Position numbers and translations under genes: made by a program
Shown here: positions 27,794 to 63,824 of the stretch, in pieces
How the letters are laid out: each line of letters begins with the position of its first letter
Numbering within the stretch: position 1 is the stretch's first letter
The notes under the pieces: model-generated
Told to the model about the DNA's origin: nothing
What the model saw: only the letters and a program-made list of their open reading frames with translations
Database searches by the model: none
NCBI RefSeq assembly: GCF_018350175.1
Contig: NC_058377.1
Coordinates: 100,068,001 to 100,132,000, forward strand
Origin: Felis catus
Lineage: Eukaryota
DNA: 64,000 bases
Direction of reading: 5' to 3'

Positions 27794-28029
27794 TCCCCCC
27801 CTCCCCGTTTAGAATTTCTTAACCATAAAGCCTGGAAAGGTGTGGTTATATGATGTTTGAGAACACATACTTATCTTTCAGAGTCCCTTCCTTGGCTCTG
27901 CCAGTTAAAGAGTCAGAATTAAAGTCACCCTGCAGGTGACATGTTACTGCACTGTGAATGGTTTACTGGTCTGATGACCTCTTTATGCAATTACCTCTCG
28001 AATGTTTGCCATTTTGATTTAGAGTTTCA

Positions 28030-29210
28030 TTTTTTTAAGTTTTTTTAATTTAAATCCCAGGCAGTTAACATACAGTGTTAAATTGGTTTCAGGTGTACAA
28101 TGTCGTGATGCAACACTTTGATACATCAACCAGTGCTCTTCACAAATGCCCTCCTTAATCCCCTTTGCCTATTTTGCCCATCCCTCCACCCACCTCCCCT
28201 CTGGTAAACATCAGTGTATTCTCTACAGTTACGAGTCTGTTCCTTGGTTTGTCTCTCTCTCTTTTTTCCCCTTTGCTCATTTGTTTTATTTCTTAAACTA
28301 CACATATGGGTGAAATAATATGGCATTTGTCTCTGAGTGACTTATTTTGCTTAGCATTATACTCTCCAGCCCCACTTACATCATTGCAAATAGCAAGACT
28401 TTGTTCTTTTTTATGGTTGAGTAATATTCCATTGTATAATATCCCACATCTTCTTATCCATTCATCAATCGATGGATAACTTGGACCGTTTATATAATTT
28501 GGCTGTGGTAGATAATGCTGCTATAAATATTGGGGTGCATGTATCCCTTTGAATTAGTATTCGTATGTCCTTTGGGTAAATAGTAGTGTAGTTGCTGGAT
28601 CGTTGGGTAGTTCTATTTTTTTTTTTTTTGTCTCAGACTTCTCACCTTTTATTTTTAATTTTTTAATTTAATTTTTAATTTTTTAAAATTTACATCCAAA
28701 TTAGTTAGCATATAGTGCAACAATGATTTCAGGAGTAGATTCCTTAATTCCCCTTACCCATTTAGCCCATCCCCCTCCCACAACCCCTCCAGTAACCCTC
28801 TGTTTGTTCTCCATATTTATGAGTCTCTTATGTTTTGTCCCCCTCCCTGTTTTTATATTATTTTTGTTTCCCTTCCCTTATGCTCATCTGTTTTGTCTCT
28901 TAAGGTCCTTATATGAGTGAAGTCATTATGACTTTTGTCTTTCTCTGACTGACTAATTTCACTTAGCATAATACCTTCCAGTTCCACCCACGTAATTGCA
29001 AATAGCAAGATTTCATTTTTGATTGCTGAGTAATACTCCATTGTATATATATAGCACAATTTCTTTATCCATTCATTCATCGATGGACATTTGGGCTCTT
29101 TCCATACTTTGGCTATTGTTGATAGTGCTGCTATAAACATGGGGGCGGGTAGTTCTATTTTTAACCTTTTTGAGGAACCTCTATACTATTTTCCCAAGTG
29201 GCTATGCCAT
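28030..29210 (-). mobile_element. Older carnivore L1 3' end interrupted by a younger L1 3' end (28621-29146)
   Basis: Two L1 3' ends are present. The inner one has TSD GGGTAGTTCTATTTTT at 28605 and 29147 and an ORF2 C-terminus (MFIAALSTIAKVWKEPKCPS..WVELEGIMLSEISQ). Confidence 0.9.
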
Positions 29211-41533: not shown

Positions 41534-42442
41534 ATGGATAGTCCACGAAACATCACGGAATTTTTCATGCTGGGACTCTCGCAAAACTCTGAAGTGCAGA
41601 GAGTTTTGTTTGTGTTCTTTTTGATTGTCTACCTTGTCTCTGTTGGGGGCAACCTACTTATCATGATCACCATTATCTTCAGTCCCACCTTGGGCTCCCC
41701 TATGTACTTTTTCCTGTCATGTTTGTCCTTTATTGATACTTGCTATTCCTCATGTATGACCCCCAAACTCATTGCAGACTCCTTGTATGAGGGGAGAACC
41801 ATCTCTTTTGAGGGCTGTCTGATTCAATTCTTTGTTGCCCATTTACTGGGAGGAACTGAAATCATTCTGCTCACGGTCATGGCCTATGACCGCTACGTGG
41901 CCATCTGCAAGCCTCTGCACTACACGACCACCATGACCAAGCATCTCTGTGCCCTGCTGGTGGGGGTGGCTTGGCTGGGGGGCTTCCTGCATTCACTGGT
42001 TCAGCTCTTCCTGGTCCTTCAGCTGCCCTTCTGTGGGCCTAACGTGATCAATCACTTTGTCTGCGACCTGTACCCCTTGCTGGAGCTCGCCTGCACCGAC
42101 ACATATGTCATTGGCGTCCTGGTGGTGGCCAACAGTGGTGTGATCTGCCTGTTGAACTTCCTCATGCTGGCTGCCTCCTACATTGTCATCCTGCGTTCCT
42201 TGAGGTGTCACGGTGCCGAGGGGAGGCGCAAAGCCCTCTCCACCTGTGGGGCCCACTTCACTGTTGTTGCCCTGTTCTTTGTGCCTTGTATATTTATTTA
42301 CATGCGGCCATCGTCTACTTTGTCCGTGGACAAAATAGTGGCTGTGTTTTATTGTATTTTGACACCCATGTTCAACCCCCTGATTTATACACTGAGAAAC
42401 GCAGAGGTGAAAAATGCCATGAAAAACCTATGGAAAAAATGA
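41534..42442 (+). CDS. OR4C3D: Olfactory receptor OR4C3-like (mouse Olfr140/Or4c3d type), 302 aa, intact
   Basis: [18 protein letters not shown]..; [15 protein letters not shown]; KALSTCGAH; [37 protein letters not shown]. Both termini match the recalled mouse Olfr140. Confidence 0.85.
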
Positions 42443-52862: not shown

Positions 52863-53771
52863 ATGGAAATGCCACACAATATCACAGAGTTTTTCATGCT
52901 GGGACTCTCACAGAAGCCAGAGATACAGAGAGTCCTCTTTGTGGTTTTTTTGATCATCTATGTGGTCACCGTGTGTGGCAACATGCTCATTGTGGTCACC
53001 ATTACCTCCAGTCCCACCCTGGCTTCCCCCATGTATTTTTTCTTGGCCAATCTGTCCTTTATTGATACCTGTTATTCTTCCTCTATGGCCCCTAAACTCA
53101 TTGCGGACTCCTTGTGTGAGGGGAGAGCCATCTCTTTTGAGGGTTGCATGGCTCAGCTCTTTGGGGCCCATTTCTTGGGAGGTGTTGAGATTATTCTGCT
53201 CACGGTCATGGCCTATGACCGCTACGTGGCCATCTGCAAACCTCTGCACTACACGACCACCATGACCAAGCATCTCTGTGCCCTGCTGGTGGGGGTGGCT
53301 TGGCTGGGGGGCTTCCTGCATTCACTGGTTCAGCTCCTCCTGGTCCTTCAGCTGCCCTTCTGTGGGCCTAACGTGATCAATCACTTTGTCTGCGACCTGT
53401 ACCCCTTGCTGGAGCTCGCCTGCACTGACACATATGTCATTGGCGTCCTGGTGGTGGCCAACAGTGGTGTGATCTGCCTGTTGAACTTCCTCATGCTGGC
53501 TGCCTCCTACATTGTCATCCTGCGTTCCTTGAGGTGCCACGGTGCCGAGGGGAGGCGCAAAGCCCTCTCCACCTGTGGGGCCCACTTCACTGTTGTTGCC
53601 CTGTTCTTTGTGCCTTGTATATTTACTTATATGTGGCCATCGTCTACTTGGTCCATGGACAAAAACATGGCAGTATTTTATGGTATTCTGACACCTATGC
53701 TGAATCCACTCATTTACACCCTGAGAAATGAAGACGTAAAAAATGCCATGAGAAAGCTCTTCATTCAGTAA
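52863..53771 (+). CDS. OR4C3: Olfactory receptor 4C3, 302 aa, intact
   Basis: [75 protein letters not shown] matches the recalled human OR4C3. The first ATG after the acceptor is at 52863. Confidence 0.9.
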
Positions 53772-56840: not shown

Positions 56841-56855
56841 AAAAAGTAGTATTTT

Positions 56856-57065
56856 GGGGCCCTTGGGTGGCTCAGTTGGTTGAGCGTTCACTCTTGATTT
56901 TGGCTCCAACCCTTTGTTTCCTAATTCATGAAACGGGGATTTCAGGTCATGATCTCATGGTTTGTGAGTTCAAGCCCTGCCACAGAGCCTGCTTAGGATT
57001 CTCTTTCACTCTCTCTCTCTCTCAAAATAGACAAAATAAAAATAACAATCATAATAAAAAGTAAA
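56856..57065 (+). mobile_element. Can-SINE with a ~37-bp internal foreign insertion
   Basis: SINE head interrupted at 56907-56943. Confidence 0.85.
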
Positions 57066-57919
57066 AAGTAACAGGTAAAATTAATTAAAAAATAGTTTGT
57101 CACCTCTTGAACTTTCTTCCCTCAGTGAAGTTTTTCTTTTTTAATAGATGACAGCAGGATGAGTACATATTCATATCAAACATATTTACTATATTTTTTT
57201 TAATTCCAGAATAGGGAGTTGGTGGTGGGCTAGCTTCTAGTGTCCAGAGATCCTCACAGGTCCCGTTAGTTTCCTTGCTGGGATGGTAACTCACCATTAT
57301 GCTGTCCCTACTCATAAGTGGATGCCATTTATGACTTATTTTGAAGTTTAACGTGGGGCTGGGGCTGAAGTACAGATGTTTGGTCGTCCTGTGATCATGG
57401 TTGGTGAATGAAAGTGGCGGTGTTCTTGGGCTCTGGTGAGCAACTGTAGTCCCTGGCACACTTTCTGTGCTGGTGACATCTCTGAAGGCTGTAACCGTGT
57501 CTGAGCAATTTCACTAATTTTCAGCTGGCTCTTTTTTTTTTTTCAACCGAAATCATTTAATGCTTACAATTTAAGAAAGTATGTAATGTTTGTTGTCCAT
57601 TATACAGGCCAAAAAAATCAGTAGAGAGATGAAGTAACTTGCTTCCATTTACAAGGCTAATTAACGCAGCAGACAAGATGAGAAATCAAGCCTATTTGAT
57701 CTAAAGCTCTTAATCTTTGATTTCAAAGCATCTGACTATTTCTGAATCTCTCTTAGAATTTCATTATGTACATGTTATGAATTCTTTTCTATAATCTGGA
57801 TCTGTGGTCATTGTTGTTCTGTTTCGCTACACAAAGTTGGTTCATATATCACTGGTAATTTCCTGCCACAGCTGTTCAAAGTCATTGTTTCCTTTGTCCA
57901 CATCTAAAACACAACTTTA

Positions 57920-58112
57920 GGGGCACCTGGGTGGCTCAGTCAGTTAAGTGTCTGACTTTGGCTCAGGTCATGATCTCAGAGTTCATGGGTTCGAGCCCCG
58001 CGTCGGGCTCTGCACTGACAGCTCCGAGCCTGGATCCTACTTCAGATTCTGTATCTCCCTCTTTCTCTTCCCTTCCTTCACTGGTGCTCTCTCTCTAAAT
58101 TAAACATTAAAA
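57920..58112 (+). mobile_element. Can-SINE
   Basis: Head and tail present; TSD-like AAAACACA..ACTTTA. Confidence 0.9.
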
Positions 58113-58534
58113 AACACATGACTTTAATGTACAGGTAATTTCTGCCTTAACTCTACAGACTTGATCAATTATATTTCTTTTGCACCAGCCAATTTTTCCT
58201 CCAATTGTTTCTGCAGACAATTGTATATTACAGAAAATGGTGGCAATGTAATTTCTAAAAAAGTACCTTTGTGTGCCAGTATTCTCTTCTTGGGATTGTG
58301 CTAAGTAAAGAGATTTTTATCGCTGTGGTGAGAGAACATTTCTGAACCTCTTAAATTTACTACGATAAGAAAAAGTATACTTGGATGAAAGTACTTGAAG
58401 ACTCCCTGCTGTTGAATACTTTTTTTCACATGCAGTTTCTTTTTGTCTTTTAAACTAAAACTTCATTCTAGCTGTAGCACTGGGTGTAAAGAGTGTTCAG
58501 GACTATTGACACTGATCCGTTTCACACCTCCAAT

Positions 58535-58783
58535 CAGGGCAACATTATGACTTCTGTGGCCTGCTGGTAATTTTGTCCTCATGAGCCCTCCTCCTCCATT
58601 AACAATTTTAAAAATTATATTTTATAACTGCATTGATATAAAGATGACTATAGTCCAAGTTGGATTTGGATTACATTCATTGTTTCCTTATTTTAAAAGA
58701 AATTGAACATTTCAAGGGCTCCTAACATTATTGTAGGCCCTAGGCACCATGCCTACTGTGTCTTAATGGGTATGTCGACCCTG
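58535..58783. mobile_element. Non-autonomous hAT-type DNA transposon relic just downstream of OR4C45
   Basis: Terminal inverted CAGGG...CCCTG, internal GGCCCTAGGCAC motif and AT-rich core. Subfamily not assigned. Confidence 0.6.
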
Positions 58784-58938
58784 CCCACGACATACGTGCT
58801 CCTGAAGAAATCTGATCCAGGCAGCAAAATTGACTGCCCCGAGTTTGATCAGGGAAAGAAATCTCTATTTATTTAAGAAGGGAATAAATGTCTATAAATC
58901 ACCACTAGATATTTTTAGGTAAAGACTAATCACAAACT

Positions 58939-59868
58939 TCATTTATCACTGTTTTTCATTGTTTGCCCCCAGAGTTTCTTCATGACATTTTTCACTTCTG
59001 CATTTCTGAGGGTGTAGATTAAAGGGTTCAGCATGGGAGAGACTATCGTACAAAACACAGTCACAGCTTTGTCAGAGGGGAAGGAGGTCACGGGTCTCAG
59101 GTACAGGAAGGAACAAGGTACAAAGAATAAGATGACAACGGTGACATGAGAGGCACAGGTAGACAGGGCTTTGCGACGCCCTTCAGAGCTATGAGTCCTC
59201 AGTGAGTGCAGGATGACAACATAAGAAGCAACCAGCATAGAAAAAATGAGCGAACACAGCGATCCACTGTTGGCAGCAATCAGGGGCCCCAAAGTGCGAG
59301 TGTCTGTACAGGCTAGCTCCAGGAGAGGTATTAAATCACACATAAAATGGTCAATAACATTGGGGCCACAGAACGGTAACTGGACCATGAACAAAATCTG
59401 GATTCCTCCATGAAGAAAGCCTAAAATCCCAGCCATTGCCACGAAGAAACGACAGACAGGTCGTCTCATGATGGTCATGTAATGCAAGGGCTTACAGATG
59501 GCTACATAGCGGTCATAGGCCATGACAATTAACAAGACGATCTCAGCTCCAGCGAAGAAATGTTCTGCAAAGAGCTGAGTCATGCAGCCATTGAAGGAGA
59601 TGGTGTTCTTCTCAGAGATCAGGTCATAGATCATTTTGGGTGTTATGGAAGAAGAGTAGAAACCATCTATAATAGACAAGTAGGACAGGAAAAAGTACAT
59701 GGGAGAACCCAGGGCTGGGCTGATGAAGATGGTGACGGAGATGAGCAGGTTACCTGCCAGTGTGATCAAGTAGGTGATTAACAACACAGCAAATAAGAAT
59801 TTCTGCAGTTCTGGATTCTGGGTCAAGCCCAGCAAAATGAATTCTGTTACATTGCTCATCCTTTCCAT
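58939..59868 (-). CDS. OR4C45: Olfactory receptor 4C45-like, 309 aa (320 aa if the ATG at 59901 is used), intact
   Basis: [36 protein letters not shown]; [15 protein letters not shown]; [13 protein letters not shown]; DKAVTVFCT; [12 protein letters not shown]. Matches the recalled human OR4C45. Acceptor CTCTCCAG lies immediately before 59901. Confidence 0.88.
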
Positions 59869-60602
59869 GGATTCAGCTTGGGTTGTGAGCACATGGTCCA
59901 TCTGGAGAGATCACAGAGTTTCTGAGTAATATTTTTAATTCAACACTAAAAGTTTCCATCACCTCTGTAGTCCTGGCCTCTGGGATTGATGGAACCACAG
60001 CTTCCACTCACCTCTGCCACTTCGGAGACAGTTATAAAGAAGATTAGAAAGAGGTTAGATTTCTCTTATTCATATAAATTGAATATTAACAATATGTTAC
60101 AAACACCAGAATAAAAGCAAAGTGTTAATATGTATGTTGACTATGATGGACTTCCAAACTCTCTTTCTGGCTCTAAACCCTCACAGGTGGCTTTCTTTTG
60201 CTGTTTTTGGGACAATGTTTGTCAATAACAATGATTTTGAAGTTACATTTGCCCACTGGCATGAATATTTATAGATATATGGACACAATATTCTTTAAAA
60301 AGTCAACTGTATTCAGATAGGAAAGTGCCAAGCCTTACTATATCTATACCAGCAGTGTTCTTTGAGGTATGATTCCTTTCTGCCAAATGAATGCACGTAC
60401 ACACAGAGAGCTGCAGATGGGGTTTTCCCTCTTCAAAATGCCAAGGAACTGTCTGCATAACAGCTCATTGAGCAGCATTTCCTCAGTAGCCCTGGATGTT
60501 GTATCTGGCTCCAAATGGCTATTACACAGTCACTCTTCCCACATCTTTGGATATACATATACAATTGGTACAAAGTTCCCTTCAAAGTTCTCAATATTTC
60601 TT

Positions 60603-62304: not shown

Positions 62305-62764
62305 TAAAAACAATGGGAACAATGAAAAATTCTTCAAATCAGAAAAAGCGAGTATATGAAACTATAAAATGTATAAGTGCATCAGATCCAGTTGATTGGA
62401 TGTTGTTTTTTTCCCAAATCCTGCCAAATTTATGTTTCCCAAGAAGTCCATGAACAGTGTGGTGAGAATTCTTTCTATTCCTGATTTAAGCTCTCCTTTT
62501 AACCCTAAGTGTGGGAACAGTGTCTCCCATATAGACCTTAAGTCTATTAGTTAACGTGCTTGGCTGTTGTCATTTACTTAAATCTCCTGTAATTCTTCAT
62601 CGACTCGAGAGAAATATTTAAATAGACATTCACAACGGGCAGGATTTGGTAAGGCATTGACCTCTCAAGTCCTCAGAGGATTCGTAATTGGTCCTGTTGG
62701 AATCTTTGCTGGAAGCAAAGCATCCACAAACATCATTAGAGGCCAGTTTATTTTTGTATCTTTG

Positions 62765-62856
62765 TTTTATTTTATTTTTTCTCCAACTTTTTGTTTAAAT
62801 TCTAGTCAGTTAACATACAGCGCAGTATTGGTTTCAGGTGTAGAATCCAGTGATTT
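62765..62856 (-). mobile_element. Extreme 3' tip of a carnivore L1
   Basis: T-rich tail then TTAAATTCTAGTCAGTTAACATACAG..TTGGTTTCAGGTGTA, similar to 28050-28100. Confidence 0.7.
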
Positions 62857-62950
62857 AAATTTATTTATTTAATCTATTTATTTAAGAAAGGGAATAAATG
62901 TCTATAAATCACCACTAGATATTTTTAGGTAAAGACTCTAATCACAAACT

Positions 62951-63078
62951 TCATTTATCACTGTTTTTCATTATTTGCCCCCAGAGTTTCTTCATGACAT
63001 TTTTCACTTCTGCACTTCTGAGGGTGTCGATTAAAGGGTTCAGCATGGGAGAGACTATCGTACAAAACACAGTCACAG
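62951..63078 (-). pseudogene. OR4C45 C-terminal fragment (last ~42 codons plus stop) within a local duplication
   Basis: Copy of 58939-59066 with 3 substitutions. Confidence 0.92.
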
Positions 63079-63082
63079 AACA

Positions 63083-63436
63083 TGGTTGAGCGTTCACTCT
63101 TGATTTGGCTCCAGCCCTTTGTTTCCTAATTCATGAAACAGGGAAATCAGGTCATGATCTCGTGGTTTGTGAGTTCAAGCCCTGCCACGGAGCCTGCCTG
63201 GGATTCTCTTTCACTCTCTTTCTCTCTCCCTTCCCCTGCTCTTGCACACACACACTCTCTCTCTCTCAAAATAAACAAAATAAAAATAACAATCATAATA
63301 AAAAGTAAAAAGTAACAGGTAAAATTAATTAAAAAATAGTTTTTCACCTCTTGAACTTTCTTCTCTCAGTGAAGTTTTTCTTTTTTAATAGATGACAACA
63401 GGATGAGTACATATTCATATCAAACATATTTACTAT
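63083..63436 (+). repeat. Duplicated copy of 56877-57192 (headless SINE plus unique flank)
   Basis: Shares the diagnostic SINE insertion and about 130 bp of unique 3' flank. Confidence 0.93.
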
Positions 63437-63824
63437 GTTTTATTTATTAGAGGAAAGTACTACTATATAAGGCACAAGCCACTCCTTTACGTACAGACTA
63501 TTGCAGATGGAGGAAAAAATAATTGCAAAGAAATTTCCTGTTTTGTGGGAATCAAAACACTCATGTGGTTACAATTATTGACCAGTGCTTAGCTGGTTCT
63601 TTGTGGACTCGTACATTTTCAGCCTGGCCTATCTATGAAGGCAAGTCCACTTTCAAATGAGTTCAAACAATGGAGGCCAAATGGTTTCAAGAAGAAAATT
63701 CCAAATATTAGAATAAAAATTTTAGTTTGTTGTCTGGTTATGTTAAAGAGATACAAAATGGGCTTGGTAACACACAGAGGCTGTGGGTCAGACAGGCTTA
63801 GATATGAATTCTGATTCAAGCAAA

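Follow-up and report, generated by a model that had tools for sequence, protein, structure and literature searches.

A two-piece, swapped-order local copy upstream of the Felis catus olfactory receptor gene OR4C45 and its possible origin by template switching

The window, that is, the whole stretch of 64,000 nucleotides of Felis catus DNA that was analysed, contains on its minus strand an intact reading frame of 320 amino acids (58939-59901), which was identified as the olfactory receptor gene OR4C45 because the cluster to which it belongs (six members) includes XP_006944363.2, olfactory receptor 4C45 of Felis catus. The OR4C45 of the window carries Thr314 (at about 58961), where most records have Ile, a variation among cats. 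Two other olfactory receptor genes, each of 302 amino acids (41534-42442 and 52863-53771), are 88% identical, with a long identical middle in the proteins; judged from their sequences, this suggests a recent duplication or gene conversion. A non-coding patch of 564 bases lies 3 kb upstream of OR4C45 and consists of two pieces copied from the neighbourhood of this gene. It adjoins a short piece of an L1 element; the labels SINE and L1 3' end, as used here for elements of the window, are presumed to apply.

Piece B' (62873-63078, plus strand) is a copy of 58864-59066, as found by self-BLAST and alignment, and comprises 75 nt of 3' flank and the last 128 nt of the OR4C45 CDS (58939-59066). Piece A' (63083-63436, plus strand) is a copy of 56877-57192, located within and behind a SINE that starts at about 56854, and is made up of a headless SINE and about 146 nt of unique flank. 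The two piece/donor matches gave self-BLAST E-values of 5e-93 and 2e-124. B' shows 200 matches to its donor, with 3 substitutions in 203 sites (62973, 63015 and 63028) and two small insertions (1 and 2 nt), while A' shows 303 matches, 12 substitutions in 315 sites, one 1-nt gap and 39 extra nt. Both pieces lie on the same strand as their donors and in swapped order, and their templates, 3.8-4.0 kb and 5.9-6.2 kb away from the patch, are both in direct orientation. From outer end to outer end the donor interval measures 2,190 bp, of which 519 bp (24%) were copied; its middle (57193-58863, 1,671 bp) is missing from the patch. The coordinates, the substitution and indel counts and the OR4C45 identity given by the first-pass annotation were all confirmed by self-BLAST and alignment, and the alignment likewise bears out the same orientation, the swapped order and the interval of 2190 bp.

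Two features of the donor SINE (56854-57045), a private insertion of about 36 nt and a deletion in its interior, recur in the copy; a later loss of 39 nt is confined to the donor. The SINE head (56854-56876) is absent from the copy and the private insertion is present in it, in agreement with the earlier view that the event took place after the SINE was inserted. The 39 extra nt of the copy (about 63216-63254) align to the five other SINE copies of the window that were tested, and against all five the copy outscores the donor; it is therefore the donor, and not the copy, that was changed by the 39-nt loss, which lies between CT repeats. In the coding part of B', two changes, Tyr>Asp and Asn>Ser, belong to the copy, since Tyr and Asn are found in 27 of 27 protein rows. 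The difference at 62973 is due to the Thr allele of the window's own donor: the Ile of the copy occurs in 26 of 27 rows, and Thr is present at the equivalent residue in two of the six members of the OR4C45 cluster. At 63343, two sequencing runs read G, the letter of the donor, which is again variation among cats. Two conserved residues and the AG upstream are no longer present in the CDS fragment of the patch, no function is apparent, and the 0.56-kb scar seems to be dead. Within the window, self-BLAST detected no further trace of the unique parts of A and B, of the middle or of the gene; the middle, which had no other match there, contains a SINE that is 15-30% diverged from the remaining SINEs.

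The junctions of the patch were inspected one by one. The left junction (62857-62872, plus strand) consists of 3-4 extra bases and a 13-bp tandem repeat of the first 13 nt of B, with 1 mismatch. A poly(A) origin of this stretch was considered and rejected: the AATAAA at 58873 is just 4 nt from the end of B, and the 13-bp tandem repeat explains the stretch. At the central junction, a filler AACA (63079-63082, plus strand) is preceded by CAG, and the CAG at the end of B' is also found in the donor at 56873-56875, one base upstream of the start of A (chance 3.8%). The bases of the donor at which B ends are flanked, on the minus strand and within the OR4C45 CDS (59067-59096), by a stretch with 13 of 15 pyrimidines followed by AAG (not YAG), exactly at the end of B. 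On the other strand the same tract is a purine run, and such runs may stall polymerases. The two outer ends of the copy have CTAT in common in the donor (57189-57192 and 58865-58868), a coincidence spotted post hoc that has a chance of about 1%.

A direct repeat of 10 bp (TGTTTTATTT) at 62763-62772 on the plus strand matches 63436-63445 exactly and is a candidate target-site duplication; its right copy, also on the plus strand, is in 8 of 10 positions like the donor continuation (57192-57201). The first-pass annotation had called the target-site duplication candidate weak, which understates it, given that all 10 positions are identical and that such a match is expected by chance at 0.14% of 63,219 window positions, though at 46 of 517 (9%) of the sites that are as T-rich as the donor continuation. 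The nick site at the left repeat would read ATTT/AT, a modest fit to TTTT/AA, which is the L1 nick motif (PMC11702581). The decayed L1 tail at 62771-62796 resembles donor A at 56894-56919 in 21 of 26 positions, the sole other plus-strand place of the window at that level. This likeness is probably due to chance in T-rich sequence; if real, it would tie the tail to the same event as the copy.

The structure was compared with public sequencing data. Contigs of 4 of 24 public runs were aligned to 62330-63800: three runs from three studies, which hold the patch (holder runs X1, X20 and X6), and one outgroup-like run (X21, 89% of which was read). Sampled words from 62700-63600 are contained at a fraction of 0.74-0.78 in 20 of the 24 runs. 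In all three holder runs, positions 63049 to 63173 or 63175 are covered by a contig with no other letter; these junction contigs join 30 nt from B' through the filler to about 90 nt from A', the B' side being one letter below the 31-letter bridging rule when the joint is placed at 63078/63079. Contigs from three of three holder runs thus span B', filler and A' without mismatch, and this indicates that the central junction, for which the first-pass annotation had proposed a check by reads across 63078/63083, is not a misassembly. The left junction falls in a masked repeat (62856-62886) and the right one was crossed by none among the pieces listed, so that both rest on the assembly. In the outgroup-like run the flanks 62331-62487 and 63467-63701 are covered, with 21 differences in 157 nt and 40 in 235 nt (13-17%), and between 62488 and 63466 the pieces aligned are relatives of the repeats only. 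Beyond about 63535, the right flank showed no cover in the three holder runs, which may be due to a filter that takes out records. The contig depths in X1, X20 and X6 were 83.8, 24.8 and 83.4 at 62330-62855 and 96.8, 16.8 and 47.2 at 63049-63175, about 1.5-4 times those of most unrelated contigs of the same runs; depth is not copy number, and these values may hint at extra copies or at inflation by repeat words.

It might be argued that the patch is an artefact of the assembly, since the window contains four N gaps and the outer two junctions are not crossed by any contig listed. Against this, the central junction is crossed with 0 mismatches in all three holder runs, which come from three studies; X1 has, separately from the copy-type contig, a donor-type contig (5 differences, 1 gap); copy and donor are distinguished by 15 sites and 4 gaps; and the sampled words of the region recur in 20 of the 24 runs at the level given above. 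An artefact is therefore extremely improbable.

The L1 remnant consists of a decayed A-rich tail (62765-62793, minus strand, thus T-rich on the plus strand with 20 T, 4 A, 4 C and 1 G) and of a 3' tip of about 63 nt (62794-62856, minus strand), which shows 11-14 differences in 55 columns with respect to three other L1 3' ends of the window. Of these 55 columns, 8 group the tip with the more degenerate L1 type of the window, 6 group it with the other type and 4 are private to the tip. Copies of this other, younger type are 9.8-13.8% apart, compared to 2.9% for the duplication. Relatives of the tip were found in all four runs, the pieces listed having 12-17 differences per 78-86 nt; among them, tip-like pieces show 14-17 differences in the outgroup-like run and 12-16 in the holder runs, and the consensus of the loose ends in the outgroup-like run reads TTTAAATTC, as the tip does. 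A search for the degenerate L1 motif gave 0 loci in metagenome contigs and 0 in genome contigs. Two L1 3' ends of different type adjoin each other in the same orientation at about 28025-29145.

In three of three holder runs, tail and tip are contained in one unbroken contig, that is, they assemble as unique sequence. In a simulation which assumes that contigs break at shared words of 30-31 letters, such an unbroken contig had a probability of 0.07-0.08 for a divergence of 1.45% from an abundant family, of 0.16-0.18 at 2.4%, which is the upper divergence bound per copy, and of 0.67-0.84 at 7.5-10%. As a rule, mammals have one L1 lineage active at any given time (PMC5381506, a study whose species do not include the cat). 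On the basis of the mixed-type sites, of the younger type already being 10-14% diverged, of the unbroken contig and of the tips in the outgroup-like run, the L1 tip looks intermediate between the two window types and several times older than the duplication, an age that rests on 55-86 nt and three comparators from the window.

As far as the age of the duplication is concerned, 15 of the 518 sites compared are different in copy and donor, equal to 2.9% (CI 1.6-4.7%). The divergence of the two pieces (3/203 and 12/315) does not differ significantly (Fisher p=0.18), and equal age, as expected from a single event, is not rejected. The youngest SINE pairs of the window are 1.5-4.0% apart, like the duplication. 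Relative to the distance from the outgroup-like run (61/392), which is underestimated because of the 80% cut, the divergence of the duplication amounts to 0.19. A further indication comes from the protein: the copy carries Ser, which was observed in 19 of 19 cat-family rows (two of them unnamed records), while the hyena, meerkat and canid rows that extend to this position have Gly in 7 of 7 cases. The copy consequently arose after the Gly/Ser change; dating by changes of the donor protein yields an upper bound only. The cat-tiger split is placed at about 10.8 million years (PMC3778509), and we infer that the duplication dates from about the time at which the cat family spread.

We favour, at slightly better than even odds (a probability of about 0.5), a local templated insertion produced in one repair event by three DNA template switches of the FoSTeS/MMBIR type, beside an older L1 stub; the odds among this and the other readings are our own judgement. 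A germ-line DNA end, broken or stalled, would have been exposed at the L1 stub at about 62856. A first jump, 4.0 kb backwards, would have taken this end to 58864, from where 203 bp would have been copied, the first 13 bases of B being re-copied once. A second jump, 2.19 kb further back to 56877, may have been helped by the 3-nt CAG match, with 4 bases added, and about 355 bp would have been copied from there on. The return to the original template would have occurred at a T-rich site similar to the donor continuation, with little or some loss of the old L1 sequence. Later, the donor would have dropped the 39 nt between the CT repeats. The patch does hold copies of two local templates strung into one locus, the donors being intact, and shows short matches or inserts at its junctions (the 13-bp re-copy, CAG and AACA, the 8/10 T-rich likeness), the latter being an unspecific feature. 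A free circle is not needed, because a backward jump on the same molecule gives an identical end-to-start junction; according to PMC2621351, a rolling circle results when the switch goes to a site behind the break on the same molecule. That a single event was responsible, that its templates were DNA and what kind of enzyme copied them is what we infer; pieces A' and B' have no intron or editing mark that would tell an RNA from a DNA template.

Several observations sit uneasily with template switching on local DNA. The exact 10-bp repeat flanks the tip and both pieces, as the target-site duplication of one insertion would, and under template switching it must be due to chance (46/517 for T-rich sites) or be the old L1's own duplication, hit coincidentally. 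Moreover, both pieces have the sense orientation relative to the L1 as well as to OR4C45, B' stops directly after an AG whose context on the gene strand has 13 of 15 pyrimidines (0.05% of positions in 56-64 kb, noticed post hoc), and the microhomologies are short and unspecific. An alternative is one target-primed L1 insertion, in which about 90 nt of RNA with the L1 tail would have been copied from a T-rich nick, followed by a switch to templates of the OR4C45 strand (nascent RNA or nearby DNA), B and then A, and by closure in the 10-bp target-site duplication. An L1 3' end with A-rich tail is indeed present at one end with a co-oriented partner, the co-oriented tail, tip, B' and A' are bracketed by the 10/10 repeat, and known chimeras are built in this way, from a very short tip and a 5' partner (PMC13174262). 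Local genomic templates are known as well, with 3 cases in PMC11702581 and 22 in 10.1101/2024.08.27.596794, and the acceptor-like site at 59066 and the 4-nt filler would also suit such an event. On the other hand, the L1 part (tip and tail) seems to exceed the copied pieces several-fold in age, the longest pieces listed for three of three holder runs include nothing near-identical that could be the source of tail and tip, and the nick site fits its motif modestly. The templates described in the part of 10.1101/2024.08.27.596794 on which we rely typically measure less than 250 bp and lie no more than 15 bp from the site, while here they are 4-6 kb off; furthermore, there is no splice donor at 56877, and of the five strong GT sites upstream that resemble donors, none has the filler at its end. 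Splicing or back-splicing as a source of the B/A junction was rejected, since no GT follows 56877 on the gene strand and the six TGTT/GY sites in 56-64 kb are all weak donors. On account of the 10-bp target-duplication-like repeat that flanks everything, we retain the single L1 event as a doubtful reading. The L1 chimera put forward in the first-pass annotation is thus weakened by indirect evidence for a tip older than the copy, its target-site duplication candidate being less weak than claimed. In a highly improbable variant, L1 reverse transcriptase would have worked on a nascent germ-line OR4C45 transcript at its own locus, running to the RNA 5' end at the acceptor-like site 59066, adding 4 untemplated bases and continuing, by an end-to-end jump, in the distant 3' part of that RNA (or going round a circular RNA), the product being pasted 3 kb upstream of the gene.

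The remaining readings take the junction of 59066 with 56877 as a trace of a larger structure. The earlier headline was a 2.19-kb circle, or circular permutation: a 2,190-bp extrachromosomal circle would have been closed by joining these two ends, and a 0.56-kb fragment across the closing junction captured 4 kb from its source. The blocks are in swapped order and in the same direction, and the donor outer ends are joined inside the copy via AACA, so that the closing junction has a short insert, as described in PMC7450558; the CTAT at the outer ends could be added. Duplications made by circles are, however, defined in PMC7450558 by one opening point, so that the ends of the copy are adjacent in the donor, and the parts of PMC7188851 on which we draw give the same scheme. 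Here the ends of the copy, 57192 and 58864, are not adjacent in the donor: they are 1,671 bp apart and 24% of the interval was copied, 76% of the circle being absent. The patch resembles a circle junction, but by this definition is not a member of the circle-mediated duplications, and the headline fails on this adjacency. The cases in the sections of PMC7450558 that we use span 22-3,918 kb and landed 0.09-58 Mb away or on other chromosomes, and a free circle gives no reason for a same-orientation landing beside its source. We therefore consider the circle very unlikely. Insertion of the middle 1,671 bp into the donor at a later time, which would rescue it, was judged unlikely in view of the diverged SINE (15-30%) that the middle holds and of its lack of a match in the window. 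The patch might also be the deletion-trimmed remnant of a larger tandem array of OR4C45 units, or one copy that spans the junction in a 2.19-kb tandem duplication allele which collapsed afterwards. In Lynx rufus and in Lynx canadensis, two OR4C45-like proteins are present, each of which pairs with one from the other species (P0008/P0135 and P0127/P0134; tree support 0.75-0.88), from which a duplication of the whole OR4C45 in cats, in Lynx or earlier, may be deduced with low support; in addition, the copy retains 39 nt absent from the present donor, and tandem duplication plus deletion is a typical false positive for swapped order (PMC7188851). Deletion alone, by contrast, needs three units and three precise deletions, no other trace of A, B, the middle or the gene was found within the window, the two pieces are similar in age, and slippage between CT repeats simply explains the 39-nt loss. 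A tandem remnant is accordingly unlikely. Template switching, which the first-pass annotation had placed on a par with the circle, remains the best-supported option; it does not stand level with the circle, whose defining feature is missing owing to the 1,671-bp gap.

In this light, the patch would be an ordinary, already described kind of copy-and-paste scar of little importance in itself. It offers a clean example that a local copy in swapped order need not imply a DNA circle, and can be used as a presence/absence marker in cat phylogeny. If tip and copy had arrived together, it would add an instance from the germ line in which templates several kb away from the target were copied by the L1 machinery; if RNA had been copied in place, it would be a fossil of RNA-templated copying, and patches of a short L1 tip and a local copy would form a recurrent class. 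Our literature search, which left subscription papers mostly outside its scope, returned nothing on this locus.

The known systems can be compared with the patch as follows. Circle duplications (PMC7450558, PMC7188851) have in common with it two swapped blocks of unchanged direction, as well as donor outer ends that are connected by a short insert; with respect to those described in the sections on which we draw, the patch differs in that its outer ends are non-adjacent in the donor, in that 76% is missing and in being far smaller and closer to its source. L1 chimeras and locally templated L1 insertions (PMC13174262, PMC11702581, 10.1101/2024.08.27.596794) share with it a tail, a short 3' tip, a co-oriented 5' partner and a flanking repeat. 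Unlike the chimeras presented in the portions of these sources that we cite, the patch has an L1 part that appears older than its partner, the latter being neither an exon nor a small RNA, and, unlike the locally templated insertions, it has two templates 4-6 kb away rather than one of less than 250 bp within 15 bp. Inserts at human deletion breakpoints were reportedly traced by Abyzov in 2015 to template sites 2-6 kb away. The closest likeness in our preferred reading, template switching on local DNA, is to the local n-jumps, as local multi-template copies have been described (PMC7025897), and to the bridges of templated insertions (PMC2621351, PMC5120786), including a germ-line junction at which 376 bp drawn from three nearby loci were inserted (PMC5120786). 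As in the patch, nearby templates are brought into one locus in non-reference order, with short matches or inserts at the junctions and a return to the host chromosome. Compared to the FoSTeS/MMBIR cases in the passages of these papers on which we draw, which are tumour or patient events, the patch measures 0.56 kb, is old and common to many animals, and all of its junctions are direct.
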